Counted from the first letter of the stretch, positions 32,336-55,962 are shown. The stretch is DNA of 64,000 bases from Candidatus Aenigmatarchaeota archaeon (GCA_046760145.1 JBHIDO010000001.1:947-64946); one strand, 5' to 3'. A program made the numbers and translations. Notes: generated by a model not told the origin, from the sequence alone.

Positions 32336-33286
32336 ATGAGAATAGGCATAATTGGATGTGGGATAAATGGTGCATATTTGGGTTGGAAGTTATCTAGAAA
32401 AAATGATGTTACAATTTTTGAGCAGAAAAGAAAAATAGGAAAAGAGGTATGTTCTGGTTTAGTTTCTGAAAGGTTGTGGAATTTTATACCTAAAAATAAA
32501 AAATTAATTAAAAACACAATTAATTCAGCTATTTTACACTATCCTAATAAAGACGTTAAATTGGATTTTTCACCCAAAATATTTGTTTTAGAACATAAAT
32601 TATTAGATAGATATGTTGTATCTTTAGCAAAGAAAAATAACATAAAGATATTTTTGAATAAGAAAGTAACAAAAGTAACTCAAAACAAAAAACCTATAAT
32701 ATATGCTAGAAAATCGTTTGAATTTGATTATGTTATTGGTTGTGATGGTGCATTATCAATAACAAGAAAATCCTTAGGGATTGAAGATCCTAAATATAGG
32801 CTAGGAATGCTAACATATGTTAACAAAAAGGATAAATCTGATTTTTTTGAAACTTGGCCAACCAAACATGGTTTTTTTTGGAGAATACCTAGAGGATCTA
32901 AAGTTGAGTATGGTATATTAGAAAGAACAGATAGAGCAAAGAGGATGTTTCAGAGTTTTCTCAAGAAAAAGAAAATAAAGACAAGGAAAATTTACTCACG
33001 TGTTATACCATTAGGATTAACTAAACTTTATAAAGGAAAAATAGCTTTGACTGGAGATGCTTGTGGCCTAACAAAACCATGGTCTGGTGGGGGCATAATT
33101 TGGGGTTTATTAGCAGATGATATTTTATTAAGAACATTTCCAAACTTTAGGAAGTATGAGAATGAAGTAAGAAGATTATTTGAAGCAAATATATTCTTTT
33201 CAAATTTAACAGCTAGTTTAGCTTTTAAAATATCTAAATTACCATTACCTAGAAAATATTTGTTTGATAGTGATTGGGTATTTTAA
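32336..33286 (+). CDS. FAD-dependent geranylgeranyl-reductase-family oxidoreductase (start at MRIGIIG)
   Basis: Rossmann dinucleotide motif IGIIGCGINGAYLG, then EVCSG. Size about 315 aa typical of archaeal GGR-family short forms. Confidence 0.55.
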   Translation: MRIGIIGCGINGAYLGWKLSRKNDVTIFEQKRKIGKEVCSGLVSERLWNFIPKNKKLIKNTINSAILHYPNKDVKLDFSPKIFVLEHKLLDRYVVSLAKKNNIKIFLNKKVTKVTQNKKPIIYARKSFEFDYVIGCDGALSITRKSLGIEDPKYRLGMLTYVNKKDKSDFFETWPTKHGFFWRIPRGSKVEYGILERTDRAKRMFQSFLKKKKIKTRKIYSRVIPLGLTKLYKGKIALTGDACGLTKPWSGGGIIWGLLADDILLRTFPNFRKYENEVRRLFEANIFFSNLTASLAFKISKLPLPRKYLFDSDWVF

Positions 33287-34242
33287 AATAATTTTTTCAA
33301 AATTTCTATTGTTTTTTCAACAGACTCTTTACTATTATATTTTGGTTTCCATCCTAGTTGCTTTATTTTATCTATAGAAAGTAGCATGTATTTTACATCA
33401 CCTTTCCAACCACGTCCTCCATCAACCCCTCCTGTAAATTTATATTCAATATTTTCTAATCCCAATCCCTTGACAACCAAGTCTGCTATTTCTTTAACAG
33501 TTATCCTATCTTCAGAACCAAGATTAAAGATTTCAACCCTATTTTTAGCATTTTTCTCACTAAAAATCATTCCATCAATGCAATCGTCTATATAAAGATA
33601 AGATTTAGACTGGGTTCCATCACCTAGAATCTCAAGTTCTTTAGGGTTTTGTTTTAATTTTTTAATAAAATCAAATATAACACCATGACCACTTCTTTCT
33701 CCAATAACATTTGCAAACCTTAATAAAACAGATTTCATATCAAACGTATAACAATAACTCGATATTAGGGCTTCTGCAGCTAATTTTGATGCTGCATAAA
33801 GTGAAATAGGAATAAGTGGCCCATAATCTTCTTTGGTTGGAATTTGAGTTGCATCACCATAAACTGCTGAAGTAGAAGTAAATATTATATTTTTTATTCC
33901 TTTTTTTCTCATTGCTTCTAAGAGATTATAGGTAGCAACTATATTCTGATCAAAATGAACTCTTGAATCTTCAGCCCCAATTTTAACATCTGGATTTGCT
34001 GCAAGATGATAAACCTTTTCAACATCATTTAAGCATTTTTCAATATCTTCTGGTTTTAACAAATCCCCCACAACAACCTCAAAATTTGGATTACCTTCAT
34101 TATGTTTTATATTTTTCATGTTTCCAGAACTCAGATTGTCTAGCACTATTACTTTTTCATTCATAGAAAGTAGTTTATCAACTAAATGAGAACCTATAAA
34201 TCCAGCTCCACCCGTAACTAATATCTTAGACATAATATTCAT
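33283..34242 (-). CDS. NAD-dependent sugar-nucleotide epimerase/dehydratase (GalE/extended SDR family)
   Basis: ILVTGGAGFIGSHLVDKLL (GxxGxxG), catalytic YAASKLAAE (YxxxK), SDR size. Confidence 0.8.
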   Translation of the reverse strand: MNIMSKILVTGGAGFIGSHLVDKLLSMNEKVIVLDNLSSGNMKNIKHNEGNPNFEVVVGDLLKPEDIEKCLNDVEKVYHLAANPDVKIGAEDSRVHFDQNIVATYNLLEAMRKKGIKNIIFTSTSAVYGDATQIPTKEDYGPLIPISLYAASKLAAEALISSYCYTFDMKSVLLRFANVIGERSGHGVIFDFIKKLKQNPKELEILGDGTQSKSYLYIDDCIDGMIFSEKNAKNRVEIFNLGSEDRITVKEIADLVVKGLGLENIEYKFTGGVDGGRGWKGDVKYMLLSIDKIKQLGWKPKYNSKESVEKTIEILKKLF

Positions 34243-34280
34243 ATATTAAGAGTAGTTATTTATCTTTATCGGGTGTTGAA

Positions 34281-35795
34281 ATGAAATTACAAAGAAAAAT
34301 TATTTCGAATGTTTTTTATTATTTTTTAGATATTGTTACTTTGTCAATTTTCGGTTATATTTTCTGGATATTAATGGGTAAGATGTTAGTACCAGAACAA
34401 TATGGAATTTTGTTAACAGTGGTTTCTTTATTTTATGTTTTTGTTTCAATTACTACTTTGGGTTTTCATGAAGCTTTGCCTAAGTTTATATCTGAATTGG
34501 TAAAGAAAAATAAATTATCACAAATTAGATCAATGATAACTTATTCGATAAAATTTGTAACTATTACATCATTACTATTATCTGTAGCAATTTTCTTTTT
34601 ATCAGAAAATACTTCTTTGATTTTATATGGTTCCGAGAAAATGATAATACCCCTTCAATTCCTTTCAATACTTTTATTTTCTGGTGTTTTGGCATATATT
34701 TCTAAGTCAATTTTACAAGGATTTCAAAATTTCAAAAAATTATTTCTAGCTGATTTAACAGGTAATATATTAAAAATAATAATAGCATTTGTTTTGGTTT
34801 TTATTGGCCTTGGAGTTATAGGTGGAATTATTTCATTGGTTGTATGGTTTATATCAGTTGTAATTGTTTCTATAATTGTGATAATAAAAATATTTAAATC
34901 TAAATTAAAAAAAATAAATTTTGATAAAAAGAAATTTTTCAAATTCAGTTTACTTAGTGTTGTATCATTATCGTCTTTGCTTTTGATACAACAAGGAGGA
35001 ATAATAATTCTAGGATTTTTATCAACTTTAGAATCTGTTGCATTTTTAGGAGTTGCATTTCTTGTTGGTCAAATAGTTATTTTAATTCCAATTGTTATAA
35101 TGGGATCACTATTTCCAACTTTTTCTAGTTTTTGGGTAAAAGAAAAGAATAAGTTCACAAAATTATTATCAATTTCAATTAAAGTAATTGTTTTGACAGT
35201 TTTACCACTTGTTATTTTATTTACAATGCTTTCTGATTGGATAGTTAAAATTTTATATACAACAGAATATTTACCAGCATCATTTTTGTTTCCAGGATTT
35301 CTTTTTGGAAGTTTCTTATTAGGAATAAATTTATTGATTTTAATAGCATTATATTCTGCAAATAAACCCAATTTAAGAGCTTTAACACTTTTTATTGGTA
35401 TGATTATAAACATTTCTTTATGCTTTATTTTAATACCAACATTTGGTGCACAGGGTGCTGTTTTTGCATTTTTAACATCCCAAATCTTTACATTAGTGTT
35501 TTCACTTTTGTTTATTAGTAAATTAATTCAATTAAAATTTTCAAGAAGAAGTGTTCTAATTATACCGGTAAACATAATATTCTTAATTTTATTATTTTTC
35601 ATAAAATTAACTGAAATATTAGTATTAAAGGTTTTGGTAATTTTATTTTCAATAATGATTTACATAATTTTGTTGTTTGCATTAAAAATAATAAACAGAA
35701 ATGATTTAGATATTTTAAATTATTTTCCTGATAAACTAGGTTTCGAGGCTTTTAAAAGGGTAGTTAAGAGGATGATAAATTTTTTTAAGAGATAA
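34281..35795 (+). CDS. Wzx/MOP-superfamily oligosaccharide flippase (polysaccharide biosynthesis protein)
   Basis: 504 aa, about 14 TM helices, layout of Polysacc_synt/Wzx (AglR-like). First gene of glycosylation island. Confidence 0.6.
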   Translation: MKLQRKIISNVFYYFLDIVTLSIFGYIFWILMGKMLVPEQYGILLTVVSLFYVFVSITTLGFHEALPKFISELVKKNKLSQIRSMITYSIKFVTITSLLLSVAIFFLSENTSLILYGSEKMIIPLQFLSILLFSGVLAYISKSILQGFQNFKKLFLADLTGNILKIIIAFVLVFIGLGVIGGIISLVVWFISVVIVSIIVIIKIFKSKLKKINFDKKKFFKFSLLSVVSLSSLLLIQQGGIIILGFLSTLESVAFLGVAFLVGQIVILIPIVIMGSLFPTFSSFWVKEKNKFTKLLSISIKVIVLTVLPLVILFTMLSDWIVKILYTTEYLPASFLFPGFLFGSFLLGINLLILIALYSANKPNLRALTLFIGMIINISLCFILIPTFGAQGAVFAFLTSQIFTLVFSLLFISKLIQLKFSRRSVLIIPVNIIFLILLFFIKLTEILVLKVLVILFSIMIYIILLFALKIINRNDLDILNYFPDKLGFEAFKRVVKRMINFFKR

Positions 35796-35886
35796 GCTTA
35801 AAAAACTTTGTAGTTAATACTTTTAAGTAGTAAAAGATAAAAATATATTTAAACATAAATAATATAACAGCGTTATAAGTGATATT

Positions 35887-37293
35887 ATGAGGGTTTTACT
35901 TGTACAGCCAAATTATAGAAGAACAAGAGAAACTGGTGCATGGTTGGTTAATCCACCAATTGGGCTAGGATATATAGCATCAGTTTTAGAAAAAAATAAT
36001 ATATCTGTTGAAATTATAGATGCAAACGCATTAAATTTAATTCCAGAAGATGTTGCTCTTTATGCAAAAAATTTTGATATTATAGGAGTTAGTATGTTAA
36101 CTCCTGCTCATAGATTTGGAGTTGCTCTAGCAAACCATGAATTATTAAAAAATAAACTTAAGGTTGTTGGGGGTCCACATGCTTCTGGATATCCTGAAGA
36201 ATTACTCGAAAGTGGATTTGATATAGTAGTTAGGGGAGAGGGAGAATATAGTTTTCTAGAAATAGTACAAGGCAAGAATTTGAAGGATATATTAGGTATT
36301 TCTTTTAAGGATAATGGCAAAATAATTCACAATAAAAACAGACCAGAATTAGATGTAGATAAACTACCATTCCCAGCAAGACATTTAATGATAAAAAATG
36401 GTGTTGATTTGCCTTATCTTTCGGCTGGTACACAATATAGACCATGGTCACCTATTTTTACGAGTAGAGGATGTCCATATGACTGTAATTTCTGCAATAA
36501 GAAAGTGTTTGGTTATAAGTTTAGGCCAAGAAGTCCTGAAAATGTTGTAAAGGAAATTGATTTTCTGGTTAAAAATTATGGTGTAAAAGAAATTGATATT
36601 TATGATGATACATTTAATCTTGATATTGAGAGGGCAGAAAAAATATTAGATCTAATAATTGAAAGAAATTATAAAATTTACATAAGGACAACAAACGGGC
36701 TCAGAGCTGATAAAGTGACAAGAAGATTTTTAGAAAAAATGAAAAAAGCGGGTTGTATATACATTGCATATGGAATAGAATCTGGAGATCAATCTGTTTT
36801 AGATAAAATACCTAAAGCAGAAACATTAGAAGATATCAGACGTGCTGTTAAATTAACAAAAGAAGTAGGTATTCCTGTATGTGGTTTTATTATGTTTGGT
36901 TTGTTTGGGGATACAAAGGAAACTATGCAAAAAACCATTGATTTTACAAAGGAACTTGATTTAGATTTTGTTGCAGTAAATCTTACAACACCATATCCCG
37001 GGACTAAATTATTTGATAGAATTAAAAAAGAAGGAAAATTTTTATTTGATTTTAATAAATGGGAAGATTTTCATCATACATCTGGTAGAATGTGTTTTAC
37101 ACACCCAGATGTTGCTTCTCCAAAAGAAGTTGAAGAAGCATATCAACGTGCATATAGAGAATTTTATTTTAGACCACGTTATTTAATTAGACAATTATTA
37201 AAAGTTAGAACTTGGGAGCAATTTAAAGGAATGATTCGTGGAGGTATAGCGATATGGAAAGGAGCATTCAAAAAACAAAAAGTAGATCTATGA
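35887..37293 (+). CDS. B12-binding (class B) radical SAM enzyme, paralog 1
   Basis: N-terminal B12-binding-domain start MRVLLVQPNY...IGLGYIASVL. Radical SAM cluster motif SRGCPYDCNFC (CxxxCxxC). 468 aa. Confidence 0.8.
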   Translation: MRVLLVQPNYRRTRETGAWLVNPPIGLGYIASVLEKNNISVEIIDANALNLIPEDVALYAKNFDIIGVSMLTPAHRFGVALANHELLKNKLKVVGGPHASGYPEELLESGFDIVVRGEGEYSFLEIVQGKNLKDILGISFKDNGKIIHNKNRPELDVDKLPFPARHLMIKNGVDLPYLSAGTQYRPWSPIFTSRGCPYDCNFCNKKVFGYKFRPRSPENVVKEIDFLVKNYGVKEIDIYDDTFNLDIERAEKILDLIIERNYKIYIRTTNGLRADKVTRRFLEKMKKAGCIYIAYGIESGDQSVLDKIPKAETLEDIRRAVKLTKEVGIPVCGFIMFGLFGDTKETMQKTIDFTKELDLDFVAVNLTTPYPGTKLFDRIKKEGKFLFDFNKWEDFHHTSGRMCFTHPDVASPKEVEEAYQRAYREFYFRPRYLIRQLLKVRTWEQFKGMIRGGIAIWKGAFKKQKVDL

Positions 37294-38705
37294 GGGTTTT
37301 GTTATTAAATCCACCATGGATAAAGGGTTTTAATAGATTTAGTAGATGGAGCTCTAGATCTGTTTCAGAAACATTATCTGAGCCACTTTATTTAGCTTAT
37401 GCTACAGCTGTTCTTGAAAGAGATACAAATGCAGATGTAAAACTAATAGACGCATTTGCTCTTGGTTGGAAATTATCTGAATTAAAAAGAAATTTAAAAA
37501 AAATAAATCCTGATTTGGTTGTTATAGAATCAACCACACCCTCATTTGAAGATGATATGAAAACAGTTAAAATTATTAAGAATAATACTAATGCTAAAAT
37601 TATGTTAGTTGGAACGCATGGAAGTGTATTTCCCAAGGAAACCCTTAGAAATAATCCAATAGACATAGTTGCTATAGGAGAGTATGATTATACTGTTAGG
37701 GATGTTGTTAAGAATTTTAATAATTTAAGAAGGGTTAAAGGAATAGCATTTAAAAAAAATGGAAAAATCATAAAAACATCGCCACGTCCATTAATAGAAA
37801 ACTTAGATTCTTTACCATTCCCAGCAAGACACCATTTAGATATGAGCAAATATAGGGAATCTAACATTACTAAAAAAATATTTGCTAGGATGATAAGTTC
37901 TAGAGGATGTACTGGGAGATGTATTTTTTGTGTTTTCAATTTTGTGTATAACAATCTTAGATGGAGAGGAAGAAGTGCTAAAAATGTTGTTGATGAGATG
38001 GAACATTTGATAAATGAATATGGAATAGAATATATTTACATTGATGATGATACTTTTACAATTGATAAAAAGCGTGTTCATGACATATGTAAACTGATAA
38101 TTAAAAGGGGAATAAATAAAAAATTGTCATGGGGAAGTCTTTCAAGGATAGATACGGTTAATGAAAAAATGTTAAAAACAATGGTAGAAGCTGGTTGTGA
38201 TTTACTGGTTTATGGAGTAGAATCGGGAGATCAAAACGTACTGAATAATATGAAAAAAGGAATAACATTGGAGCAAATAAGAAGGGTATTTAAATGGACA
38301 AAAAAAGCTGGGATAAGAATTCATGCGACTTTTATGTTTGGCTCACCAGGTGAAACCAAAGAAACAATTAGAAAAACTATAGAATTTGCAAAAGAACTTA
38401 ATCCTGATACAGCCCAATTTCCAATTTGTATGCCATATCCTGGTACAGAATTTTATGAGATTGCAAAGAAAAATAATTGGTTAAAATTTAATAAGTGGTC
38501 AGATTTTTATAGTGCTACAGATAGAGCTGTTATTGAAACACCCCAATTATCAAGAAAGGATCTTGAGAAAGCTGTTAAAATGGCTTATAAAGAATTTTAT
38601 ATGAGACCAAGATTTATATTAAAGAAATTATTTTCTATCAATTCGTTTTCACAATTTAAAGAAACTATAAAAGGAGGATTTGCTTTGTTAAAATCTTTAA
38701 GGTGA
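37290..38705 (+). CDS. B12-binding (class B) radical SAM enzyme, paralog 2 (start at MRVLLLNPPW, ATGA overlap)
   Basis: SSRGCTGRCIFC radical SAM motif. Same domain order and length as paralog 1. Confidence 0.8.
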   Translation: MRVLLLNPPWIKGFNRFSRWSSRSVSETLSEPLYLAYATAVLERDTNADVKLIDAFALGWKLSELKRNLKKINPDLVVIESTTPSFEDDMKTVKIIKNNTNAKIMLVGTHGSVFPKETLRNNPIDIVAIGEYDYTVRDVVKNFNNLRRVKGIAFKKNGKIIKTSPRPLIENLDSLPFPARHHLDMSKYRESNITKKIFARMISSRGCTGRCIFCVFNFVYNNLRWRGRSAKNVVDEMEHLINEYGIEYIYIDDDTFTIDKKRVHDICKLIIKRGINKKLSWGSLSRIDTVNEKMLKTMVEAGCDLLVYGVESGDQNVLNNMKKGITLEQIRRVFKWTKKAGIRIHATFMFGSPGETKETIRKTIEFAKELNPDTAQFPICMPYPGTEFYEIAKKNNWLKFNKWSDFYSATDRAVIETPQLSRKDLEKAVKMAYKEFYMRPRFILKKLFSINSFSQFKETIKGGFALLKSLR

Positions 38706-38709
38706 TATA

Positions 38710-40158
38710 ATGAAAGTACAATTAATTAATCCTCCAAGATTTAATAAAACACCAGTAATTAGAGAAGTTAGATGTGCAGGTTTATCACCAGTTTCTGTTT
38801 TTCCTCCTTTAAACCTTGCTTATATAGCATCTTTTCTTAGAGAAAGGGGTATTGATATTTCTTTAATAGACGCTAATGCTCTGGATTTATCATGGAACGA
38901 TGTTGAAGATTCTATAAGAAAATTCAAACCAGATGTAATTATCTTTAAATCTTCACCTCCTACAATGATTTGGGATTGTAATACTGCTAAAATAGCTAAA
39001 AAAATTAATAAAAAAATTATTACAATTTTAGATGATTCTCATATAGCCCCTGTATTCCCAGAGAAAACACTTAAGAAATTTCCTTATATTGATCTTTTAA
39101 TAAGAGGTGAATCTGAGAAAACTTCTTTTCAATTGATAAAAACAATAAAAGGAAAAAGGAATTTCAATAAAGTTACTGGCATAAGTTTCAGAAAGGGAAA
39201 TAAAATTGTTAATACCAAACCTACACCACCTATTAAAAATTTAGATGACTTACCAATACCTGCTTTTGACCTTCTTCCAATCAATAAGTATTTTTCAATA
39301 ACATTTTCTAAAAGAAAACCATTTATGACTATAATAACTTCAAGAGGTTGCCCATTTAGATGCGATTTTTGTATTGTTGGAGGTTCTACTGTTTGGAGGG
39401 GTTCTGGAAATGGATGGTTTCAAAGAAGTGCAAAATCAATTTTAGATGAAATAGAACACTTAGTTAAGAATTATAAAATAAAAGATATCTATTTTTTTGA
39501 TGAAACCTTTACAGTCGATAAAAAAAGAGTTCTAGAAATTTGTAAAGGTATTAAAAAAAGAAATATAAAGATAAATTGGTCTTGTAATTCAAGAGTTGAC
39601 AGTGTGCAGGATGAAAAAATGTTAAAAACAATGGCAGAAGCAGGTTGTTGGAATTTATTATTTGGTGTTGAATCTGGCTCTCAAGAAATATTAGATTCTT
39701 GCAATAAAAGAATAAATATTTCGCAAATAAAAAAAACATTCGAGATTACAAAAAAATATGGTATATATGCTTCTAGTTCCTTTATGGTAGGTCTTCCAGG
39801 TGAGACCAAAGAAACAATTAGAAAAACTTTAAAACTTGCTTTAGAGTTAAATCCAGATTTTTCTCAATTTGTTATAACAACACCATATCCTGGTACAATA
39901 CTTTATGAAAAGGTAAAAAAAGAAGGACTTCTAGAAAGAGATTATAAATTCTCAAGTTATGATGCTTATTGTGTCCAAGATCATCCAGTTTTAAGAACAG
40001 AATTCATGAGTTCCGAAGAAATTGCCAGAGCACAAAAATGGCTTTATAAGAAATTTTATTTTAGATTATCATACATTTTACATAGATTATTTTCTATAAA
40101 AAATTTTAATGAATTGAAATATCACCTTAAAGCTATGAAATATGTTGCTGGTGTTTAA
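38710..40158 (+). CDS. B12-binding (class B) radical SAM enzyme, paralog 3
   Basis: MKVQLINPPR start; TSRGCPFRCDFC. Shares the conserved block GLPGETKETIRKT with paralogs 2 and 4. Confidence 0.8.
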   Translation: MKVQLINPPRFNKTPVIREVRCAGLSPVSVFPPLNLAYIASFLRERGIDISLIDANALDLSWNDVEDSIRKFKPDVIIFKSSPPTMIWDCNTAKIAKKINKKIITILDDSHIAPVFPEKTLKKFPYIDLLIRGESEKTSFQLIKTIKGKRNFNKVTGISFRKGNKIVNTKPTPPIKNLDDLPIPAFDLLPINKYFSITFSKRKPFMTIITSRGCPFRCDFCIVGGSTVWRGSGNGWFQRSAKSILDEIEHLVKNYKIKDIYFFDETFTVDKKRVLEICKGIKKRNIKINWSCNSRVDSVQDEKMLKTMAEAGCWNLLFGVESGSQEILDSCNKRINISQIKKTFEITKKYGIYASSSFMVGLPGETKETIRKTLKLALELNPDFSQFVITTPYPGTILYEKVKKEGLLERDYKFSSYDAYCVQDHPVLRTEFMSSEEIARAQKWLYKKFYFRLSYILHRLFSIKNFNELKYHLKAMKYVAGV

Positions 40159-40794: not shown

Positions 40795-40795
40795 A

Positions 40796-48077: not shown

Positions 48078-49030
48078 AATATCCATCTATAACTGTTCTT
48101 ATAACAATAAAAAACGCTAAGGATACAATCAAACAATGCATTGATTCCTTATTAAAATTAGATTATCCTAACTATAGAATCTTTGTTGTAGATGCATTTT
48201 CTAATGATGGAACATATGAGATATTAAAAAGTTATGGAAATAAAATAGAGTTACACCAATTAAAGGGTTGGGCACCCAGAGCATATAATTGGGCAATTGA
48301 TAGAATAAAAACAGAATACATTGCTTTAATAGACGGGGATTGTACTGTACCAAGAAATTGGTTAAAAGAATTAATAAAGGGTTTTAAGTCAGATGATATT
48401 TTAGAAGTTCTTGGTTTTTGTGCAACACCTAAGAATGTTTCTAAGTTACAAAAAATAATTGGTGCAGATTTAGAGGACAGATTTAAACATCTACCAAAAT
48501 ATCCTTCTAGAGCTCCTACTATGAATGTTATTTTTAAAACAGAAACAGCAAAAAAGTTAAAGTTTGATGAATCTTTAAGGGTTGGTTATGATACTGATTT
48601 TTCTTTCCGTTTAACAAAACTTGGTAAAATTTATTATAATCCTAAAGCTGTTATTTATCATTATCATAGAGCAACTTGGAAAAATTATTTCAAACAACAG
48701 TATATAACTGCAACAATGATGCCCAAGTTATATAGTAAACATAAATCAAAGTCCAAAGGAGACCCCATAACTAAATCAACTATGATAATTCAACCATTCC
48801 TATCATACTTAGGAATTTTAGGTTTGATTTTATATTTTTTAACTTCACAATTTCTTGCTTTCGCTATTTCTATGTTTTTGATTTTATTATTTCTTTTCAT
48901 TGTTGATACTATACGTTTGAGCAAAAATCTTAGTGATGTTTTCTGGCTTTTTGCTATTTTTATTGTAAGAAATGTAGCATGGTCTATTGGACTTATCAAG
49001 GGTATAATTAGTTATTTGATAGGAAGATAG
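48059..49030 (+). CDS. Family-2 glycosyltransferase with C-terminal TM helices
   Basis: ITVLITIKNAKDTIKQCIDSLL...YRIFVVDAFSNDGT (GT-A DxD region: IDGDC). Two C-terminal TM helices. Confidence 0.7.
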   Translation: MEAVLLKYPSITVLITIKNAKDTIKQCIDSLLKLDYPNYRIFVVDAFSNDGTYEILKSYGNKIELHQLKGWAPRAYNWAIDRIKTEYIALIDGDCTVPRNWLKELIKGFKSDDILEVLGFCATPKNVSKLQKIIGADLEDRFKHLPKYPSRAPTMNVIFKTETAKKLKFDESLRVGYDTDFSFRLTKLGKIYYNPKAVIYHYHRATWKNYFKQQYITATMMPKLYSKHKSKSKGDPITKSTMIIQPFLSYLGILGLILYFLTSQFLAFAISMFLILLFLFIVDTIRLSKNLSDVFWLFAIFIVRNVAWSIGLIKGIISYLIGR

Positions 49031-49031
49031 C

Positions 49032-49448
49032 ATGTGGTGGAAAAAACATTTTATTTTATCTTTTCTATTGGGTTCTCTTTATTTTCTTTTTTCTGAAGAT
49101 TTTATAGGCGGGATTATAGTTTTTTTGTCAGGCTCTTTGATAGATATAGACCATTATATTCTGTATAAGATTGTTAGTAAAGAAAGTTTTTCCAACATAT
49201 ATAAAAGATTTTACAAAATTGAAAAAGGAAAAATACCTGATAAAGATGTACATAAATATGTTTTACCGTTTCATAATTTTGAATTTGCAATTATTATAAT
49301 AATTTTAATTTTCTTTCATCCAATTTTTTTACCAATAGCAATAGGTTCTGTTTCACATTTCTTATCTGATATTATTACTGTAAGAAATTTTAAAATAAAA
49401 AACTATTATTCTCTAATATATTATTTTTCTAAAAAATTATCCAAATAA
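49032..49448 (+). CDS. Small 4-TM membrane protein (hypothetical)
   Basis: 138 aa hydrophobic ORF tightly following GT2 gene. Confidence 0.3.
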   Translation: MWWKKHFILSFLLGSLYFLFSEDFIGGIIVFLSGSLIDIDHYILYKIVSKESFSNIYKRFYKIEKGKIPDKDVHKYVLPFHNFEFAIIIIILIFFHPIFLPIAIGSVSHFLSDIITVRNFKIKNYYSLIYYFSKKLSK

Positions 49449-50111
49449 CCATCTTACAAAAAGATGCCAGGCATTCTTAAAACCATCTAAAACTCCAACA
49501 CCCCTAACCTTTCTAGGACTAATAATTGAAATTTCATTTATTTTTAATTTTTTTCTAGAAGCTTCTAGTATCATTTCAGCTTCTATAGCATATCTATCAG
49601 CTTTTAGATTTAATTTTTTCAATTTATCTGCTTTTATTGCTCTATAACCACATTCTGTATCTGATAACCATTTATTAAAATTAAATCCAAAGCATAGCAA
49701 ATTTACTCCAAATCTTAAGCCAATATTTCCAAATAAATTAATTCTACTTGTAGCTATTTTTCCTTTAAACCTAGACCCTATTACCATATCACTTTTCTTT
49801 AAAGCCTTCAAAAATTTTGGGATGTCTTCTGGTCTGTGTTGTCCATCTGCATCCAGAAATATTATGATATCTGGTTTGTATTTCATAGCTATTTTTGAGC
49901 CAAGTCTTTTGGCATAACCATTACCTCTATTATTTTTATAAGAAATAACTTTGGCCCTAGCCTTTTTTGCTATTTCTTCAGTATTATCAGTAGAGCCATC
50001 ATTTACAACTATTACTAAATTTGAATATTTTTTAGCTCTTCTTATAACACTAGAAAACACTTTACTTCTTTTACCTTCATTATAAGCAGGGATTATAGTT
50101 ATAACTTTCAT
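49437..50111 (-). CDS. Family-2 glycosyltransferase, dolichyl-phosphate sugar synthase (Dpm1/AglJ/AglD-like)
   Basis: MKVITIIPAYNEG...VNDGSTDNTEEI...IIFLDADGQH: canonical Dpm1/GtrB-type GT2 motifs. 224 aa. Confidence 0.8.
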   Translation of the reverse strand: MKVITIIPAYNEGKRSKVFSSVIRRAKKYSNLVIVVNDGSTDNTEEIAKKARAKVISYKNNRGNGYAKRLGSKIAMKYKPDIIIFLDADGQHRPEDIPKFLKALKKSDMVIGSRFKGKIATSRINLFGNIGLRFGVNLLCFGFNFNKWLSDTECGYRAIKADKLKKLNLKADRYAIEAEMILEASRKKLKINEISIISPRKVRGVGVLDGFKNAWHLFVRWLFG

Positions 50112-50156
50112 AAAACCACTTAAGGTATATATTATTAACCCTTATAAAATAATAAT

Positions 50157-51185
50157 ATGAAAATAAATTATGTTTTATGGAATTTGAAATGTACTGGTGG
50201 TAATAGGGTTATATTTGAAATAGCTAATGGCTTGGTTGACAGGGGTTATGATGTAACTATAACTGCTGCTGGTGGAGATCCAAATTGGTTTCCCCTCAGA
50301 GCTAAATTAAGAATTTTTCGTAGTTATTTCAAATATCCATCTTTGCTAAATATGATGAGTAGTTTCTTTACTATGATGACAAAGAAACATGAAGCAGATG
50401 TAGTTATTGCTACCTGGGCCTTTACTGCTTATCCTGTTAAATATTCTGGAAATGGGAAAAAATTTTATCATATTCAACATTATGAACCATTATTTTTTAA
50501 CCAACCTTTTAAATATCTTGTAAAGAGAACATATTCTTTTCCTTTGAAATTAATTTCTAATTGTATTTGGCTAAGAAACATGCTAAAAAAGAAACATAAT
50601 AGAGATTCAGTAATAATAAATCCTGGTATTGATCTGAAGTTATTCAGACCTAAAAAATTAAAAAAAGATCCTAGTAAAAAAAGAATTGTTTGTTTGGGAA
50701 AGGATTACATTCCTTGGAAAGGGGTCCAAGATGCATTTAAAGCAATGGAAATTGTAAATGAAAAAAGAAAAGATGTTGAATTGATTTTTTATGGTATTAG
50801 ACCTTTAACAACTAAAAATCCTAAGGTTCCTTATAGATTTATTAAATTTCCCTCTGATGAAGAACTTGTTAATCTATATAATTTGGCTGATTTAGTTCTT
50901 TGTCCATCTTGGTATGAAAGTTTTCCACTTCCTCCATTAGAAGCAATGGCTTGTGGTGTTCCAATTGTTACCACAAGATATGGAACTGAAGATTATGCTT
51001 TTGATGGAAAGAATTCACTAGTAATTCCACCAAAAAGACCAAAATTAATGGCAGAAGCAATTTTAAAAGTTTTAGATGATGAAAAATTGGCTAGAAGATT
51101 AAGAGAAAATGGAATAAAAACAGCTAAAAAATTTACTTGGAATAATACAGTTGATAAATTTGAAAGATTATTAAAAGAGATATAA
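50157..51185 (+). CDS. GT-B-fold glycosyltransferase, family 4-like
   Basis: C-terminal EAMACGVPIVTTRYGTEDYAFDGKNSLVI (E-x7-E GT4 motif). 342 aa. Confidence 0.75.
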   Translation: MKINYVLWNLKCTGGNRVIFEIANGLVDRGYDVTITAAGGDPNWFPLRAKLRIFRSYFKYPSLLNMMSSFFTMMTKKHEADVVIATWAFTAYPVKYSGNGKKFYHIQHYEPLFFNQPFKYLVKRTYSFPLKLISNCIWLRNMLKKKHNRDSVIINPGIDLKLFRPKKLKKDPSKKRIVCLGKDYIPWKGVQDAFKAMEIVNEKRKDVELIFYGIRPLTTKNPKVPYRFIKFPSDEELVNLYNLADLVLCPSWYESFPLPPLEAMACGVPIVTTRYGTEDYAFDGKNSLVIPPKRPKLMAEAILKVLDDEKLARRLRENGIKTAKKFTWNNTVDKFERLLKEI

Positions 51186-51225
51186 TGAAATTAAGGTGTG
51201 TAATTTGAAAATATCATTTATAGTG

Positions 51226-52602
51226 ATGTATAAACCCACTCCATTAAGTCTATGTTATCCTTCACTTGGTGTTGGTTATCTTTCTTCATATGTTAAACAA
51301 AATACTGATTTTAAAACATCTGTAATTGATACTGCAATAGAAGATCCTATTAATAGATTAACCAAAGAACGCCCAGATATAATAGGAATATCTTCGTCAA
51401 CATTAGAATTCCACGAGGCAATTGAATTATCAAAAAAAATTAAGGAAATTTTTGATGTCCCCATAATAGTAGGAGGATCTCATATATCTGCATTACCACA
51501 CACATTACAAGATTCTTTTGATATTGGAATTATTGGTGAAGGTGAACAAACTCTTGTTGAATTATTAAAATTATTTGAAAAGTATGGATTCAGTTCTAAT
51601 AAACTTAAAAATATAAATGGAATTGTTTTTCATGATAAAAATAATAATAAAATAACAAAATCCAGGGAACTGATTAGACCTTTGGATAGAATACCTATGC
51701 CTGATTATGATTTATTTAACATGAAATATTATCTTAAAAAACAAGATCATTTTCCAAGAAAACATGGAAAAGGAATGTCGATGATAACTTCAAGAGGATG
51801 TCCTTATAGATGCGTTTTTTGTGGAAGTTCTCATTTTTGGAGGATGTTAAGATATCACTCAGCTGAATATTCAGTAAACGTAATGAAATTCCTAATAGAT
51901 AAATATGATGTTGAATTCATCAATATATTTGATGACATATTTGTAATAGATATTAAAAGATTAAAGGAAATAGTGAAACTAATTAGAGAAGAAGGAATAC
52001 ATAAAAAAGTAACTTTTGGTATTCAATCACGAGCAAATATAATGTCAGATGAAATCTGTAAATTACTAAAACAAATGAATGTTTATTATCTTGGTTTTGG
52101 TCTGGAAAGTGGAAGTGAAAAGATACTAAATTATTTAAAAAAAGGGACTGTCACTGTAGAAGATAATAAAAATGCTGTGAAAATGTGTAAGAAATATAAT
52201 TTTGCTGTTGGGTCTGGTTTTATGGTAGGTAATCCTAATGAAACTGAGAAAGATATGAATGACACTTTAAAATTTATTCAAGAAAACAATATGGATAGTT
52301 GTACTGTTTATATAACAGCTCCTTTACCAGGAACAGAGCTTTGGGAATATGCCAAGAAAGAAGGTCTTGTTTCAGATAATATGGATTGGAGTAAAATAAA
52401 TCAATTCTTTACTGGTGATAATGTTATATTGAGTAAAATGGACAGAGAGAAATTTACTATGATTTATAATAAAATATTAAGAGCAAGTACTGTTTCAAAA
52501 ATAAGAAGTAACATATTACATCCATTCTCATTAACTAGTTATTTCATAAAGAATCCATTTGCAATAATAAAGTACTTAAAACAAATAAGAAAAGGTGGGT
52601 GA
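51226..52602 (+). CDS. B12-binding (class B) radical SAM enzyme, paralog 6 (start at MYKPTP; longer ORF begins 51196)
   Basis: TSRGCPYRCVFCGS radical SAM motif. N-terminal B12-binding-like region. Confidence 0.75.
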   Translation: MYKPTPLSLCYPSLGVGYLSSYVKQNTDFKTSVIDTAIEDPINRLTKERPDIIGISSSTLEFHEAIELSKKIKEIFDVPIIVGGSHISALPHTLQDSFDIGIIGEGEQTLVELLKLFEKYGFSSNKLKNINGIVFHDKNNNKITKSRELIRPLDRIPMPDYDLFNMKYYLKKQDHFPRKHGKGMSMITSRGCPYRCVFCGSSHFWRMLRYHSAEYSVNVMKFLIDKYDVEFINIFDDIFVIDIKRLKEIVKLIREEGIHKKVTFGIQSRANIMSDEICKLLKQMNVYYLGFGLESGSEKILNYLKKGTVTVEDNKNAVKMCKKYNFAVGSGFMVGNPNETEKDMNDTLKFIQENNMDSCTVYITAPLPGTELWEYAKKEGLVSDNMDWSKINQFFTGDNVILSKMDREKFTMIYNKILRASTVSKIRSNILHPFSLTSYFIKNPFAIIKYLKQIRKGG

Positions 52603-53918
52603 ATAAATTGAAAATAGGAATATTAGGGGGAGGATTAACTGGTTTATCTTTAGGATTATTTCTAAAACATGATTTTGAAATTTTGGAAAAAGAAAAAGAA
52701 TGTGGAGGATTATGTAGAAGTATTCAGGAAAATGGTTTTACATTTGACTATGGAGGAGGACATATTTTATTTTCAAGGGATGAAGAAATTCTCAACTTTA
52801 TGTTAAAGTTACTTTCAGATAACATTGTAAAATGTAAAAGAAATAGCAAAATTTTTTATAACGGAATATATATTAAATATCCATTTGAAAACGGATTAAG
52901 TGATTTGCCGTTACAAGAAAATTATGAATGCCTAAATGACTTCATAGATGTTTTAATAAAATCTTCTAAAGGAGAATTGAAAGAACCTTATAATTTTCAA
53001 GAATGGATTTATAATACATTTGGAAAGGGAATTGCTGAAAAATATCTAATTCCTTACAATAAAAAGATATGGAATTTTGACCCTCAAAACATGGGAATAG
53101 ATTGGATAAAAATTAAAGATAGATTACCAAAACCAAATCCAGAAGATATTATTAAGTCTGCATTAGGGGTTAAAACTGAAGGGTACAAAGCTCAATTATA
53201 TTTTTATTATCCTAAAAACGGTGGTATTCAATCTTTGATAAGAGAAATGGAGAAAAGAATAAAAAATATTACTAGAAAGTTTAATATCAAAAGAATTTTT
53301 AAAAGGAAGGATAAATGGCTAGTTTCTAATGGTTTTATAGAAAAAAGGTTTGATAAATTAGTATCAACTATTCCTTTGCACGATATAATCTTAATGTTGG
53401 AAAAAGTTCCAGAAAAGGTTAAAAAAGCTGTTAATGATTTAAAGTTCAATTCTTTAATGACAGTTCTTATTGGAATTGATCAAGATAATTTATTTGATAA
53501 GCATTGGATTTATATACCAGATATGAAAATGAAACCCCATAGAATAATTTGCCCTACTGCAAATACAAAGGAAACAGCTCCGCAAGGAAAATCCTCTTTA
53601 ATGGCAGAAATAACATGTAAATTTGGAGATTCTTATTGGAATAAATTTGATAGTGAAATAATAAATGAGGTTATTAATGATTTGCATGAAAGGAAAATTA
53701 TAGATAAAAATAAAGTTATTTACAAAAAATTAATGAGGTCTAAATATGCTTATGTAATTTATGATTTAGATTATCAGAAAAATATTAGAATTGTAAAAGA
53801 TTTTTTCAATGAAATTGGTATTGAATTGTGTGGAAGATTTGCAGAATTTAAATATCTTAATATGGATGCATGTATTAGAAGTGCTTTGGAAATGGCAAAG
53901 AAATTGAATTCTAAATAA
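52599..53918 (+). CDS. FAD-dependent oxidoreductase, UDP-galactopyranose-mutase/amine-oxidase-like
   Basis: N-terminal Rossmann KIGILGGGLTGLSLG followed by ECGGLCRS...FTFDYGGGHILF, resembling the UGM/amine-oxidase fold. 439 aa. Confidence 0.4.
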   Translation: MNKLKIGILGGGLTGLSLGLFLKHDFEILEKEKECGGLCRSIQENGFTFDYGGGHILFSRDEEILNFMLKLLSDNIVKCKRNSKIFYNGIYIKYPFENGLSDLPLQENYECLNDFIDVLIKSSKGELKEPYNFQEWIYNTFGKGIAEKYLIPYNKKIWNFDPQNMGIDWIKIKDRLPKPNPEDIIKSALGVKTEGYKAQLYFYYPKNGGIQSLIREMEKRIKNITRKFNIKRIFKRKDKWLVSNGFIEKRFDKLVSTIPLHDIILMLEKVPEKVKKAVNDLKFNSLMTVLIGIDQDNLFDKHWIYIPDMKMKPHRIICPTANTKETAPQGKSSLMAEITCKFGDSYWNKFDSEIINEVINDLHERKIIDKNKVIYKKLMRSKYAYVIYDLDYQKNIRIVKDFFNEIGIELCGRFAEFKYLNMDACIRSALEMAKKLNSK

Positions 53919-55962
53919 CCTCATATATTTTAACCATTTCATTTCTAAATACTTGTTTAAAATGTTCTAATCCTTGACCTTCTAACATAAACATTTTTGT
54001 GAATACAACATTCCTTAAATTTGGTGGAATTAAAACTACATATCCTTGATGTTGAGGAATCCATATTGTATACGGCATTGTTTTATCAGTAATTCTTACA
54101 TTTAATATTCCTTCTAAAGGTTTTAAGGACTCTATTAATTCTGTTTTATTATATTGATTCAATTTTAAAGTTTTTGGTATACCACCTTCGTAATAAATCA
54201 TTTCATTATATAATGAAGCTCTTCCTGTTTCTTTATCCACAAAAATCGGTAAAGGTATGTTAGCAAGAACAACAAAAGTATTTCCATAATTTCTTACCAT
54301 ATAACCACCTGCAACAAATGAATTTTGTAATCCTAGTTGATAGTAAAGAGGACAGTTTGGATTAACTGTACCATCACAACCTGTTCCAAAATATTCTATC
54401 CATCTGAATTTTCCTATTAAATCATCAGAAGCTATCCAATAAACTTTAGGAGAATTACCTTGATATTTTCTTATTAATTTTAATGATTCATTTTCATCAG
54501 TAGTTGCCATTATTTTTCCTAGATCAACAATTCTATCATTTATTGTATAATAACAAACTTCTTTACAATGTGCTCCATCTGCTATATTTCTTCTTTCAGC
54601 TAAACCAGATATCATATGCCCTGGGTCCCACCAAGTTCCAACTAAAGAATACTCAGGGGTTTGAGTTTTCAAAAAGTTCCATGCATCATCCCAATATACA
54701 TTTATGTCAGGACCAAGTTGAGATCCAATTTCATAACCAAAGTTAAATGCAATTAAAACTATAAGAACTCCTGCGCCAATACAAATTGTTTTTATTATTA
54801 TGTCTTTTTTCAGGGACCATTTAACCAAATAACCAAATCCAACTCCAATCAAGACTATGAATAATGCAGATGTAAATTCTGTAAATCTAACTCCCCTAAA
54901 TGATGTATAGACAGCTATTAAGAATAGAGTTAATAAAAACGATAATATATTAATATCTTTTTTGTAAGCTTTATATAAACCAAAAAATATAAACAAGAAA
55001 ATTACTATAAACATTATAATGTTGAATATATTATCTCCTGTTACAAATCTACCAGTTGCTAGAATCCAACCTTCTAAACTGAATATACTAAAAGGTTGTA
55101 GTTCTGCAATAGATATATTTACAATCCATACTTCTGCACGTTGGGCAAATCCAATCACATTTAATAAACTTGATATAGGACTTTGATTTGTTATAAAACC
55201 TATAATTATTAAACCTATGAAAAGTAAGACCATAAAGATAAACTGGCCTTTAAATTCTTTGAAAGAGAATTTTAATCTTTCACTAAAACTAATCTTTATT
55301 TCCTCCCTTTTTCCTATTAATAAATTTAATAGGAAATAAACAATAACATATCCTGCAAGGATTAAATACGAATAAATAAACATCTCCCAAGTTAACATGA
55401 ACGCTGTAAAACCTATTAATGCAAAACAAAAACTTGCTATTGTTCTTTTCTTTAATCCATAAATTCCTAAATAAAGGGTTAAAACTATGAAAAATAGGGT
55501 TATGGCATCAGTGTCATAAGAACTTCCAAACGTTCTTGTTAAAATTGCTGGAGCAGTTCCTATTAAAGATGCTGCCAATAAGCCACCATATTTATTTGAT
55601 AATTCTCTTCCCAAAAGGAACGCAGGAATAACAATTAAAGCTCCATAGATTGCAGACATATAAGCTGCAGTTGTCATTAAACTAAGGCCAAATAGTTTTG
55701 TAAACCAATATATAAAGACAGTTACATAGTGCATAAATGGTTGTAGATTCATAAATCTTCCAACATAATATCCAATTTCATCCCATACAGGCAAGTGTCC
55801 CCAATCAGCAAGATATTTAGTAAATCTATATTGAAAAATGGGATCAAAGGAAAGTAATCTATCAGGAACAATATTTATAGATCTTATGTAATATGAAAAT
55901 AAGAATATGAAAATTAATGCAAGCCAAACCCAGTTTTTCTTCAAAAAATTTTCTAATTTCAT
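53911..55962 (-). CDS. aglB: Archaeal oligosaccharyltransferase AglB (STT3 homologue)
   Basis: 13-TM N-terminal domain and WWDPGHMISG (WWDxG catalytic motif of STT3/AglB). 683 aa. Confidence 0.8.
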   Translation of the reverse strand: MKLENFLKKNWVWLALIFIFLFSYYIRSINIVPDRLLSFDPIFQYRFTKYLADWGHLPVWDEIGYYVGRFMNLQPFMHYVTVFIYWFTKLFGLSLMTTAAYMSAIYGALIVIPAFLLGRELSNKYGGLLAASLIGTAPAILTRTFGSSYDTDAITLFFIVLTLYLGIYGLKKRTIASFCFALIGFTAFMLTWEMFIYSYLILAGYVIVYFLLNLLIGKREEIKISFSERLKFSFKEFKGQFIFMVLLFIGLIIIGFITNQSPISSLLNVIGFAQRAEVWIVNISIAELQPFSIFSLEGWILATGRFVTGDNIFNIIMFIVIFLFIFFGLYKAYKKDINILSFLLTLFLIAVYTSFRGVRFTEFTSALFIVLIGVGFGYLVKWSLKKDIIIKTICIGAGVLIVLIAFNFGYEIGSQLGPDINVYWDDAWNFLKTQTPEYSLVGTWWDPGHMISGLAERRNIADGAHCKEVCYYTINDRIVDLGKIMATTDENESLKLIRKYQGNSPKVYWIASDDLIGKFRWIEYFGTGCDGTVNPNCPLYYQLGLQNSFVAGGYMVRNYGNTFVVLANIPLPIFVDKETGRASLYNEMIYYEGGIPKTLKLNQYNKTELIESLKPLEGILNVRITDKTMPYTIWIPQHQGYVVLIPPNLRNVVFTKMFMLEGQGLEHFKQVFRNEMVKIYEVI

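Follow-up and report, generated by a model that had tools for sequence, protein, structure and literature searches.

Introduction

What are six radical S-adenosylmethionine (SAM) genes with cobalamin (B12)-binding domains doing in what looks like the protein-glycosylation locus of a small-genome archaeon? The question is raised by a 64,000-nt stretch of DNA from a Candidatus Aenigmatarchaeota archaeon (GCA_046760145.1, JBHIDO010000001.1:947-64946), which was analysed as a whole and is called the window below; window coordinates are counted from its first letter. A first-pass annotation of the window had described positions 33283-55962 as a glycosylation island resembling archaeal agl loci, had counted six class B radical SAM enzymes (rSAMs) in it, and had proposed that it was not a described Agl pathway. 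To our knowledge, neither radical SAM nor cobalamin-dependent enzymes have been described in any Agl pathway, and we know of no protein-glycosylation pathway in any domain of life that uses class B rSAMs. The literature searched agreed with the proposal, since it contained no Agl pathway with radical SAM enzymes and no paper that linked class B rSAMs to AglB, STT3 or N-glycosylation loci; a keyword search of recent reviews on B12-dependent rSAMs gave no link to glycans. The kind of locus is already known; its enzyme content and the chemistry that this implies are new. More than 220,000 class B sequences are available, and reactions are known for a few dozen of the enzymes (PMC12931638).

Sequence comparison indicated that the six rSAMs form an integral part of the locus and are old in evolutionary terms, and that their tightest link is to a membrane-anchored glycosyltransferase (GT) of family GT2 that resembles PcManGT.

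The island and its six radical SAM genes

The window is archaeal, with a G+C content of about 28%, and carries genes for Cdc6, a family B DNA polymerase, SecDF, RadA and RPA. Domains were assigned by Pfam and NCBIfam scans of the window open reading frames (ORFs). The glycan-assembly island was placed at 33283-55962, adjoining AglB, with 32303 as a plausible start; it spans about 23 kb and 19-20 genes. The scans of 33283-55962 recovered every component that the first-pass annotation had listed, and added what that list had missed, namely a flavoprotein resembling UDP-galactopyranose mutase (UGM), a YdjM-like ORF and a bordering gene of the geranylgeranyl-reductase family. In the following, the six rSAM genes are labelled rS1 to rS6 and comparison loci carry L numbers (L001, L088 and so on); GT2_323 is the GT2 gene at 48059, GT2_224 the AglJ-like GT2, GTC492 the PMT_2-type GT-C protein, and unk425 and unk138 the ORFs at 42813 and 49032.

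The 14 genes that begin with wzx and end with unk138 run in the same direction with gaps of -19 to +91 nt, and among them rS3, the first methyltransferase gene (MT1), rS4, the second (MT2) and unk425 abut or overlap one another. AglB lies on the opposite strand and outside this co-directional array. Hydrophobic segments were absent from the rSAMs, the methyltransferases and a P-loop protein; Wzx, the two GT-C-like proteins and AglB were polytopic.

Exactly six window ORFs carried both the Radical_SAM (PF04055) and the B12-binding (PF02310) domain of Pfam, which bore out the number claimed, and a family profile search of the 64-kb window matched these six ORFs only. All are encoded on the plus strand: rS1 (35887-37293; PF04055 100 bits, PF02310 64 bits; cluster motif CPYDCNFC), rS2 (37290-38705, in an ORF that opens at 37254; CTGRCIFC), rS3 (38710-40158; CPFRCDFC; 0-nt gap to MT1), rS4 (40796-42157; CYWSKCTFCLWP), rS5 (46632-48077; PF04055 70.8 bits; CWGRCIYC) and rS6 (51196-52602, with an alternative start at 51226; PF04055 82.8 bits, PF02310 60.1 bits; CPYRCVFC), with Pfam matches to both domains in rS2, rS3 and rS4 as well. 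The gathering score of PF02310 was passed by five of the six; the B12-type N-terminal domain of rS5 is weak (29.5 vs 32.1 bits). The cluster was CX3CX2C in five proteins and CX4CX2C in rS4, the two spacings that had been predicted. The N-terminal motif M[RK][VI]xL[IL]NPP, said to open all six, was exact in rS2 and rS3 only, loose in rS1, rS4 and rS5, and did not fit rS6; likewise, the description of the genes as tandem held for three contiguous genes, the other three being interspersed with other genes.

Pairwise identity among rS1-rS6 was 25-43%, so that the six are old paralogs and not recent tandem copies. Recent tandem duplication was also rejected on the grounds that five of them have DPANN orthologs elsewhere (42-74% identity, or partners at bootstrap 98-100). 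In a neighbour-joining tree of 69 rSAM sequences (461 columns, 100 bootstraps), rS1, rS2, rS3 and rS5 each paired one to one with a gene of L001 at bootstrap 98-100 (rS1 with L001_8592 at 100). The bacterial partners of rS3 and rS4 were well supported (99-100): rS3 clustered with L006_9168 (100) and rS4 paired with the Planctomycetales gene L015_4608 (99).

Conservation in archaeal relatives

The comparison loci were mostly contigs of metagenome-assembled genomes (MAGs) or metagenomes, with ORFs called by a simple script. The rS1-rS2-rS3-methyltransferase block was kept in four Aenigmatarchaeota-like contigs (L001, L088, L089 and L101), where it stood among GT, GT-C, epimerase and Wzx genes; the same contigs usually also held rS4, rS5, two GT-C proteins and the P-loop protein, which has a phosphoenolpyruvate carboxykinase (PEPCK)/HprK-type fold. 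These four and L104 contained rS2 or rS4 orthologs at 62-69% identity and most of the cassette (rSAMs, methyltransferases, unk425, P-loop protein, GTC492, GT2_323, epimerase and Wzx) in a slightly rearranged order, and the locus of L001 ended in STT3. Orthologs of rS1 were 63-64% identical in L001, L088 and L089, those of rS2 64-66% and those of rS3 60-62%; rS5 orthologs (51-74%) were found in L001, L089, L101, L104 and the Micrarchaeota locus L092, and rS6 orthologs (42-44%) in L092 and L099. Orthologs of rS4 at 63-71% occurred in the Nanoarchaeia locus L091 and in metagenome loci, mostly directly upstream of GT2_323, and its CX4CX2C cluster was shared by the orthologs of L015, L088, L089 and L091.

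More distant archaeal loci retained smaller sets. In L091, a methyltransferase, rS4 (63%, CX4CX2C), GT2_323, PMT_2, Wzx, AglH and STT3 were present. In L092, rS5 (54%) was followed by GT2_323, with rS6 (44%) and Wzx also present, behind a TctA-SecD-SecF-reductase flank. A metagenome scan with rS4 gave 20 usable loci, of which six had AglB homologs and nine (L101, L103, L104, L106, L108-L112) held at least three rSAM paralogs. The minimal locus, L097, consisted of wzx, AglH, GT-C, PMT, rS4, GT2_323 and AglB. Altogether, STT3/AglB stood beside the module in the window, L001, L091, L096-L098, L102, L103 and L112. The association of rSAM, GT and GT-C genes thus recurred across DPANN, and the block lay inside, not outside, the glycosylation loci of relatives (L001, L088, L089, L101, L091, L092 and the Omnitrophota operons below), in keeping with its first-pass assignment.

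The flank that precedes the glycan locus of the window, TctA-SecD-SecF and the geranylgeranyl-reductase-like gene (28547-33286), was found in the same position in L092 (1-4821) at 51-65% identity, so that the site at which the glycosylation locus is inserted is conserved across DPANN phyla.

Coupling to a GT2 enzyme and occurrence in bacteria

GT2_323 (48059-49030, plus strand; PF00535, PF13641 and PF13632) is a membrane-anchored GT2 with a minimal cellulose-synthase-like predicted fold. Its AlphaFold2 (AF2) model had a pLDDT of 94, and Foldseek matched it to PcManGT (6yv7; E 3.7e-13, TMq 0.58) and to hyaluronan synthases (TMq up to 0.68). PcManGT, a transmembrane mannosyltransferase from Pyrobaculum calidifontis, is said to have been implicated in N-glycan synthesis by Gandini and colleagues in 2020. 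A role of GT2_323 as a polyprenyl-phosphate sugar synthase of the GtrB/DPMS type was considered and found unsupported, the best folds being PcManGT, hyaluronan synthase and TarP/TarS.

The GT2_323 family was DPANN-wide (44-66% identity), and its coupling to rSAM genes was tight. In the window, the reading frames of rS5 and GT2_323 overlap by 19 nt; in L092, L101 and L104 the rS5 ortholog likewise stood directly upstream of GT2_323. A full-length GT2_323-type gene was found no more than 300 nt from an rSAM gene in 10 of 19 near relatives and in 11 of 20 rS4 loci, and in none of 61 distant loci, a set that included the true HpnJ genes checked. Near true HpnJ, no full-length gene of this type occurred within the fetched flanks (up to 10 kb per side), where only N-terminal GT-A matches in ORFs 1.9-7.7 kb away were seen. 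The rSAM/GT2 pair was also tried as a homolog of the HpnJ/HpnI pair; this was rejected, as GT2_323 gave no match to the HpnI model.

The rS2 protein was 100% identical to one from an NCBI Aenigmatarchaeota MAG and had more than 3800 homologs at E<1e-30. Glycosyltransferases were likewise frequent around rS2-like genes: of the 126 ORFs that lay no more than four genes away, 36 encoded glycosyltransferases (20 GT2, 9 GT4-type, 4 PMT_2 and 3 STT3) and 15 were further rSAMs. Two rS2-like proteins were natural fusions with a C-terminal class I methyltransferase, P0034 (807 aa; L005 10001-12424) and P0055 (751 aa). The fusion gene of L005 lies directly downstream of a GT2_323-like GT2, and its methyltransferase domain resembles MT1 (29.6%, E 1.7e-6). 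Fusions of this kind act as a Rosetta stone for the rSAMs and the class I methyltransferases, linking two enzyme types whose genes alternate in the window.

In bacteria, four Omnitrophota operons (L007, L010, L011 and L086) combined STT3, a GtrB-like GT2, an HpnJ-like rSAM and a GT2_323-like GT2, to which L010 and L011 added a PMT_2-type GT-C; these operons look like a bacterial N-glycosylation-like system beyond the known Campylobacterota and Desulfobacterota cases. Their STT3/PglB-type genes encode 830-865 aa (L007 2611-9403; L010 3932-12378; L011 3779-12357; L086 5225-11452), and the AglB of the window was 21-23% identical to these STT3 proteins. A GT2-rSAM-GT2 triad was present in Elusimicrobia, BRC1/Sumerlaeota and Endomicrobiales. 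The contig L006 (MAG bacterium E14_metabat.bin.161; 1-19126) carried eight rSAM-family ORFs with a GT2_323-type and a Dpm1-like GT2, an array larger than that of the window.

Family placement of the radical SAM proteins

The best NCBIfam model was HpnJ (TIGR03471) for five of the paralogs, with full-length alignments, and BchE for rS6. Against HpnJ the six scored 131-334 bits, far from the equivalog cutoff of 577.6 (rS2 334 and rS4 289 bits); true HpnJ controls from a genome scan reached 716 and 765 bits, and the rSAMs of the bacterial and DPANN glycan modules 360-436 bits. Scores against BchE (TIGR02026) were 83-249 bits (cutoff 481), with 152.6 bits for rS6, the most divergent paralog, and those against the AprD4 model 31-128 bits (cutoff 500). 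Matches to the BchE, ApyD and C-methylase models, the last for peptides that are synthesised on ribosomes and modified after translation (RiPPs), were significant yet sub-threshold. On these scores the six lie outside the housekeeping families, as the first-pass reading presupposed. Among solved structures, the family profile matched AprD4 best (6fd2, E 1.7e-43), followed by MgmA/QCMT, OxsB, CysS, TokK and TsrM.

In the tree, rS4 and the clade of bacterial glycan modules grouped with HpnJ (bootstrap 76-91) and carried C.FCLWP, the cluster motif of HpnJ. The pair of rS4 and its Planctomycetales partner was sister to HpnJ (bootstrap 76), which made rS4 the window paralog nearest to the true HpnJ clade. 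Because of this position and the common motif, rS4 is the best candidate for a ring contraction in the style of HpnJ or Cds. No hopanoid gene (shc, hpnI or hpnK) was found in the window scans.

MoeK5, Fom3 and GenK are methylases. The first-pass annotation had taken class B membership to point to C-methylation (or rearrangement); the step from class B to C-methylation proved unsafe, for neither HpnJ nor BchE is a methylase, and a published sequence similarity network has HpnJ in one cluster with Fom3 and MoeK5 (PMC9204698).

Glycosyltransferases, flippase and oligosaccharyltransferase of the island

The flippase, GT and AglB assignments of the first-pass annotation were all recovered by Pfam. 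The Wzx/MOP-type flippase for lipid-linked glycans (34281-35795, plus strand; Polysacc_synt E 3.6e-18) has about ten or more hydrophobic segments and a 41% ortholog in L089. GT2_224 (49437-50111, minus strand; PF00535 E 5e-23) is a soluble AglJ/Dpm1/PpgS-like GT2 and a candidate dolichyl-phosphate hexose synthase. At 96 bits against AglJ (TIGR04182; cutoff 325) and 81 against PpgS (cutoff 370), it is AglJ/Dpm1-like only; homologs (37-44%) were found in L001, L088, L091, L101 and L112. The GT4 glycosyltransferase of GT-B type (50157-51185, plus strand; Glycos_transf_1 E 2.5e-29) has a 43% ortholog in L001. AglB, the STT3-family oligosaccharyltransferase (53911-55962, minus strand), is convergent with the island and scored 86.9 bits against STT3 (PF02516; cutoff 24.5) and 41.5 against the archaeo_STT3 equivalog (cutoff 450). 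The motifs WWDPG, SIAE (TIXE-like) and YDTD were assigned by eye from its translation, and orthologs of 60-61% stood beside rSAM/GT2 genes in L103 and L112.

The GT-C-like membrane proteins that had been claimed are two. GTC492 (45110-46588, plus strand) is a PMT_2/ArnT-type GT-C glycosyltransferase (PMT_2 42.3 bits, cutoff 26.1, with a PMT match) with orthologs of 37-46%. Enzymes of the PMT_2/ArnT type use polyprenyl-phosphate sugar donors on the outer face of the membrane. The polytopic unk425 (42813-44090, plus strand; 8 hydrophobic segments) is probably a second GT-C-type glycosyltransferase. It had no Pfam match even at E<=10, and its alignment with PMT_2 by hhalign (93.7% probability, E 2e-7, 236 columns) was made from a profile of 2 sequences; orthologs of 41-46% occurred in L001, L088 (two copies), L089, L101 and L104.

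Sugar-modifying, methyltransferase and remaining genes

At the island border lies the flavoprotein gene of the geranylgeranyl-reductase family (32303-33286, plus strand; TIGR02032 128.9 bits vs a cutoff of 158.8), whose product may saturate polyprenol or dolichol. Its ortholog in L092 (51%) has the same place between SecF and the glycan locus, and likewise in L101. The adjoining NAD-dependent sugar epimerase/dehydratase of GalE/RmlB-like type (33283-34242, minus strand; Epimerase E 1e-54) scored under the cutoffs of the GalE and dTDP-glucose dehydratase models and has orthologs of 40-61% in L001, L088 and L089. The eukaryote-type UGM-like FAD protein (52599-53918, plus strand; NAD_binding_8 and Amino_oxidase) is a candidate pyranose-to-furanose mutase of nucleoside-diphosphate sugars, with matches in the PDB to UGM (4dsg, E 6.7e-29; 3ute, E 7e-24) and 35.7 bits against TIGR00031 (cutoff 303.75).

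The two class I SAM methyltransferases of the first-pass list were found as MT1 (40159-40794, plus strand; Methyltransf_11 E 3.8e-17) and MT2 (42157-42816, plus strand; Methyltransf_23 E 8e-15). In L088 and L089, MT1 has orthologs of 51-54% downstream of rS3, and MT2 orthologs of 40-45%.

The P-loop protein (44095-45108, plus strand) had been called HprK-like, and its AF2 model (pLDDT 80, pTM 0.80) has the PEPCK/HprK fold; it is a putative kinase or phosphotransferase. In the Foldseek search of the PDB, ATP-dependent PEPCK was on top (E 1e-8, TMq 0.56) and HprK/P at rank 39 (E 3e-5), and there was no match to the PDB by sequence. The sequence models HprK_rel_A/B gave 16-18 bits against a cutoff of 200, and Pfam and NCBIfam matches were sub-threshold. 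GxGKT and DD were invariant in this family, which had 10 members in 5.8e9 sequences, among them orthologs in L088 and L089. Every gene neighbourhood inspected was an archaeal glycan cluster; in the Halobacteriota locus L090 (10001-11074) the homolog stood in a glycan cluster with a UGM-like flavoprotein and a GT2 and without an rSAM.

The small ORF unk138 (49032-49448, plus strand) has two membrane segments and is weakly YdjM-like (E 0.011, below cutoff). No homolog was found in any fetched locus, and its membership in the system is uncertain.

Other features of the window

A ribonucleotide reductase of class II, which depends on adenosylcobalamin and carries an ATP-cone, is encoded at 14494-16632 (plus strand) and passes curated cutoffs (NF006417 1033 vs 961 bits; TIGR02504 762 vs 400 bits), so that cobalamin is evidently available to the organism. 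No Rfam family, cobalamin riboswitches included, reached its gathering threshold in the 64-kb window, and ARAGORN found no tRNA gene in it.

Positions 375-5358 (minus strand) hold a membrane-bound hydrogenase/Mrp-like module (machinery of the energy-conserving hydrogenase type, here in a DPANN genome), with a NuoH-like protein (1619-2461), a NiFe-hydrogenase large subunit/Complex1_49kDa protein (2449-3606) and a protein like subunit D of the Mrp antiporter (4483-5358). A replication cluster comprises Cdc6/Orc1 (23779-24969), an OB-fold protein (24966-25868) and the family B DNA polymerase (25906-28542), and the intergenic stretch 23449-23779, which lies upstream of cdc6, is a possible replication origin. 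The ORF of a free-standing LAGLIDADG endonuclease (10595-11353, minus strand) lies beside an AAA_22 ATPase ORF (9509-10594, minus strand), and a 669-aa ORF (58846-60855, minus strand) has only a weak match to the homing-endonuclease-associated HNH_repeat; the pair and the latter ORF may be mobile or selfish elements.

Proposed pathway and alternative explanations

What was observed directly is which genes are present, to which domains and folds they are assigned, how they are packed in operon-like fashion, and that rSAM, GT2, GT-C and STT3 remain associated across DPANN and Omnitrophota. From homology and synteny, on which all functional statements here are based, we infer that the substrate is a sugar borne by a lipid carrier, which types of reaction occur, that they occur at a cytoplasmic stage and that the neighbouring AglB transfers the product. 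On balance, we favour the view that the island serves a DPANN archaeon in the assembly of lipid-linked surface glycans, most likely N-glycans, and has been expanded with B12-type rSAMs that would tailor dolichol-linked sugars in the cytoplasm.

In such a pathway, the epimerase/dehydratase and the UGM-like flavoenzyme would supply nucleotide sugars, and the AglJ/Dpm1-like GT2_224 would load a sugar onto dolichyl phosphate. GT2_323 and the GT4 enzyme would extend the lipid-linked glycan on the cytoplasmic face, where the six soluble rSAMs, members of distinct old subfamilies, may alter specific sugar residues at unactivated carbons in cooperation with MT1, MT2 and the P-loop protein of PEPCK/HprK fold. 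The rSAM whose gene lies immediately upstream of GT2_323 would act on the donor or the product of this glycosyltransferase. Candidate reactions are C-methylation as by GenK and MoeK5, carbocycle ring contraction of the HpnJ/Cds type and deoxygenation of the AprD4 type; the alternation of methyltransferases with rSAMs and the rSAM-methyltransferase fusions fit methyl-rich products. Wzx would then flip the intermediates over the membrane, AglB would move the glycan to asparagine, and the two PMT_2-like GT-C proteins would add sugars borne by dolichol phosphate on the extracellular side. A sugar target has precedents among the nearest characterised relatives: AprD4 is the best structural match, and HpnJ and MoeK5 share their network cluster with Fom3 (PMC9204698). 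A wider version of the proposal, to which we would give a little less than an even chance, holds that DPANN archaea and ultrasmall Omnitrophota place C-methylated, deoxygenated or carbocyclic residues on STT3-dependent protein glycans, the residues being made by cobalamin-dependent rSAMs that work on lipid-linked intermediates and have a minimal GT2 of cellulose-synthase-like type as their obligate partner.

Several points weigh against the favoured reading. Many characterised archaeal B12-dependent rSAMs act on isoprenoid lipids, such as GrsA/B and the MoeK5-like Gmm (PMC11214058), and a geranylgeranyl-reductase-like gene stands at the island border. No STT3 was present within the examined stretch of the Elusimicrobia locus L004, the BRC1 loci L012/L013 or the Endomicrobiales locus L014, and these STT3-free modules indicate that the rSAM/GT2 pair is not strictly tied to N-glycosylation. 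The B12 domain of rS5 is under the Pfam threshold and the L001 ortholog of rS5 is without a B12-binding call, so that at least one paralog may be cobalamin-independent, like AprD4, an enzyme which shows that a B12-like domain is no guarantee of cobalamin binding. The rSAM tree is distance-based, its deep nodes are without support, and it was taken without reference sequences of Cds, Gmm, GrsA/B, GenK and MoeK5; methylases and non-methylases are not distinguishable from sequence.

The bacterial loci without STT3 in the stretch examined (L004, L012-L014) support an alternative that we regard as unlikely, namely that the tailored product is a separate glycoconjugate, either a glycolipid or lipoglycan with a cyclitol head group of the HpnJ/Cds kind or an O-linked or polymeric surface glycan, which is made with the GT2 and the PMT_2-type GT-C, and that AglB is adjacent only because envelope genes generally cluster when a genome is small. 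PMT_2-type GT-C genes co-occurred with the module at least as regularly as STT3, and AglB is on the other strand and outside the co-directional array. In L092, moreover, a PIG-L-family deacetylase gene near rS5/GT2 recalls the logic of hopanoid cyclitol ethers, in which N-acetylglucosamine transfer and deacetylation precede HpnJ (PMC13459092). Coincidental clustering is harder to reconcile with STT3/AglB beside the module in two domains, in nine archaeal loci including the window and in the four Omnitrophota operons, and with the minimal locus L097, which still holds AglB with rS4 and GT2_323. The GT2 partner also points away from a cyclitol head group: it is like PcManGT, reportedly an N-glycan mannosyltransferase, and not like HpnI, and its full-length type was absent from the examined HpnJ flanks.

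Quite unlikely, in our estimate, is that the rSAMs modify the lipid part, that is, the dolichol/polyprenol carrier or scavenged membrane lipids or glycolipids, by methylation, cyclisation or cross-linking as GrsA/B, Gmm and HpnP/R do. Co-location cannot separate sugar from carrier as the target, since the glycan intermediates are all lipid-linked. Isoprenoid lipid cores are the target of the best-characterised archaeal B12-dependent rSAMs, among them the MoeK5-like Gmm (PMC11214058; PMC13459092). The geranylgeranyl-reductase-family gene abuts the island and keeps its position in L092 and L101; the tight and specific coupling of the rSAMs is nevertheless to GT2_323 and not to this reductase, and neither the window nor those related loci that were examined contained a Tes, Gms, Grs or other lipid-synthesis gene. 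HpnJ, the nearest named relative, and AprD4, the nearest solved structure, act on sugar rings, and six different modifications of a carrier would be unprecedented.

That the six are housekeeping or unrelated class B rSAMs (BchE-like cyclases, HemN-like oxidases or methylases of RiPPs or other peptides) which lie among glycosylation genes by chance is effectively excluded: the significant BchE, ApyD and RiPP C-methylase matches and the large rSAM arrays known from other settings, such as those of Elusimicrobia, which accompany nitrogenase paralogs and not glycan loci (bioRxiv 10.1101/765248), are outweighed by scores far under all curated cutoffs, by the absence of tetrapyrrole genes and SPASM domains from the island (RiPP precursors and recognition elements were not searched for), and by orthologs that remain in glycan loci across DPANN phyla and bacteria.

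Irrespective of the target, a large orphan clade of rSAMs gains a testable context, lipid-linked glycan assembly beside STT3/AglB and GT-C from DPANN to Omnitrophota, Elusimicrobia and BRC1, and rS4 or rS5 with the PcManGT-like GT2 offers a minimal experimental unit. If radical tailoring of sugars is true, it would constitute a new branch of N-glycan chemistry with C-methylated or carbocyclic residues and would, for the first time, assign a function to the HpnJ-like class B rSAMs, an orphan clade of very large size. It would also help to explain the distinctive surfaces of genome-reduced episymbionts, and would make the biogenesis of symbiont envelopes reliant on B12 from hosts or the community; the essential ribonucleotide reductase of this small-genome archaeon is likewise B12-dependent.

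Comparison with known systems

HpnJ is the nearest named system. It is proposed to contract the glucosamine ring of bacteriohopanetetrol-glucosamine into a cyclitol ether and is without in vitro characterisation (PMC13459092). Its model was the best curated one for five paralogs, its C.FCLWP is carried by rS4 and the glycan-module clade, and both HpnJ and the island rSAMs are encoded with a GT2 in the context of a lipid-linked sugar. The two differ in score (131-334 bits for the island and 360-436 for the glycan-module clade, against 716-765 for true HpnJ) and in setting, since the island belongs to an archaeon, its window is without hopanoid genes, and its PcManGT-like GT2 is absent beside true HpnJ.

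The rSAMs that act on sugars in antibiotic pathways have the same domain architecture as those of the island and include GenK, Fms7, GenD1 and MoeK5 for C-methylation, the diol dehydratase AprD4 and OxsB for ring contraction. MoeK5 has a lipid-linked saccharide as its substrate and a place beside HpnJ in the similarity network (PMC9204698). In contrast, these enzymes belong to secondary-metabolite clusters of actinomycetes, and the AprD4 model gave only 31-128 bits with the island rSAMs (cutoff 500). The calditol synthase Cds (Saci_1489 of Sulfolobus), compared by description only, is an archaeal rSAM proposed to form a five-membered carbocycle from a lipid-linked hexose (PMC13459092), the same logic as that of one candidate reaction; however, it acts on head groups of the glycerol dialkyl glycerol tetraethers of thermoacidophiles, and no report places it in an N-glycosylation locus. 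PcManGT (6yv7) and GT2_323 are both archaeal and share a GT-A domain with C-terminal helices; their identity is only 16-17%, and no radical SAM partner of PcManGT is known.

The island was finally compared with the Agl pathways of Haloferax (AglJ/G/I/E/D/P/R/B), Methanococcus (AglO/K/C/A/L/B) and Sulfolobus. An AglB with WWDxG, a Wzx-type flippase, an AglJ/Dpm1-like GT2, further GT2 and GT4 enzymes, SAM methyltransferases (cf. AglP) and epimerases are clustered in a similar way. No Agl equivalog model was reached by the island proteins (AglJ 96 vs 325 bits; archaeo_STT3 41.5 vs 450), and to this familiar set the island adds two PMT_2-like GT-C proteins, a UGM-like flavoenzyme, a PEPCK/HprK-fold protein and six rSAMs.

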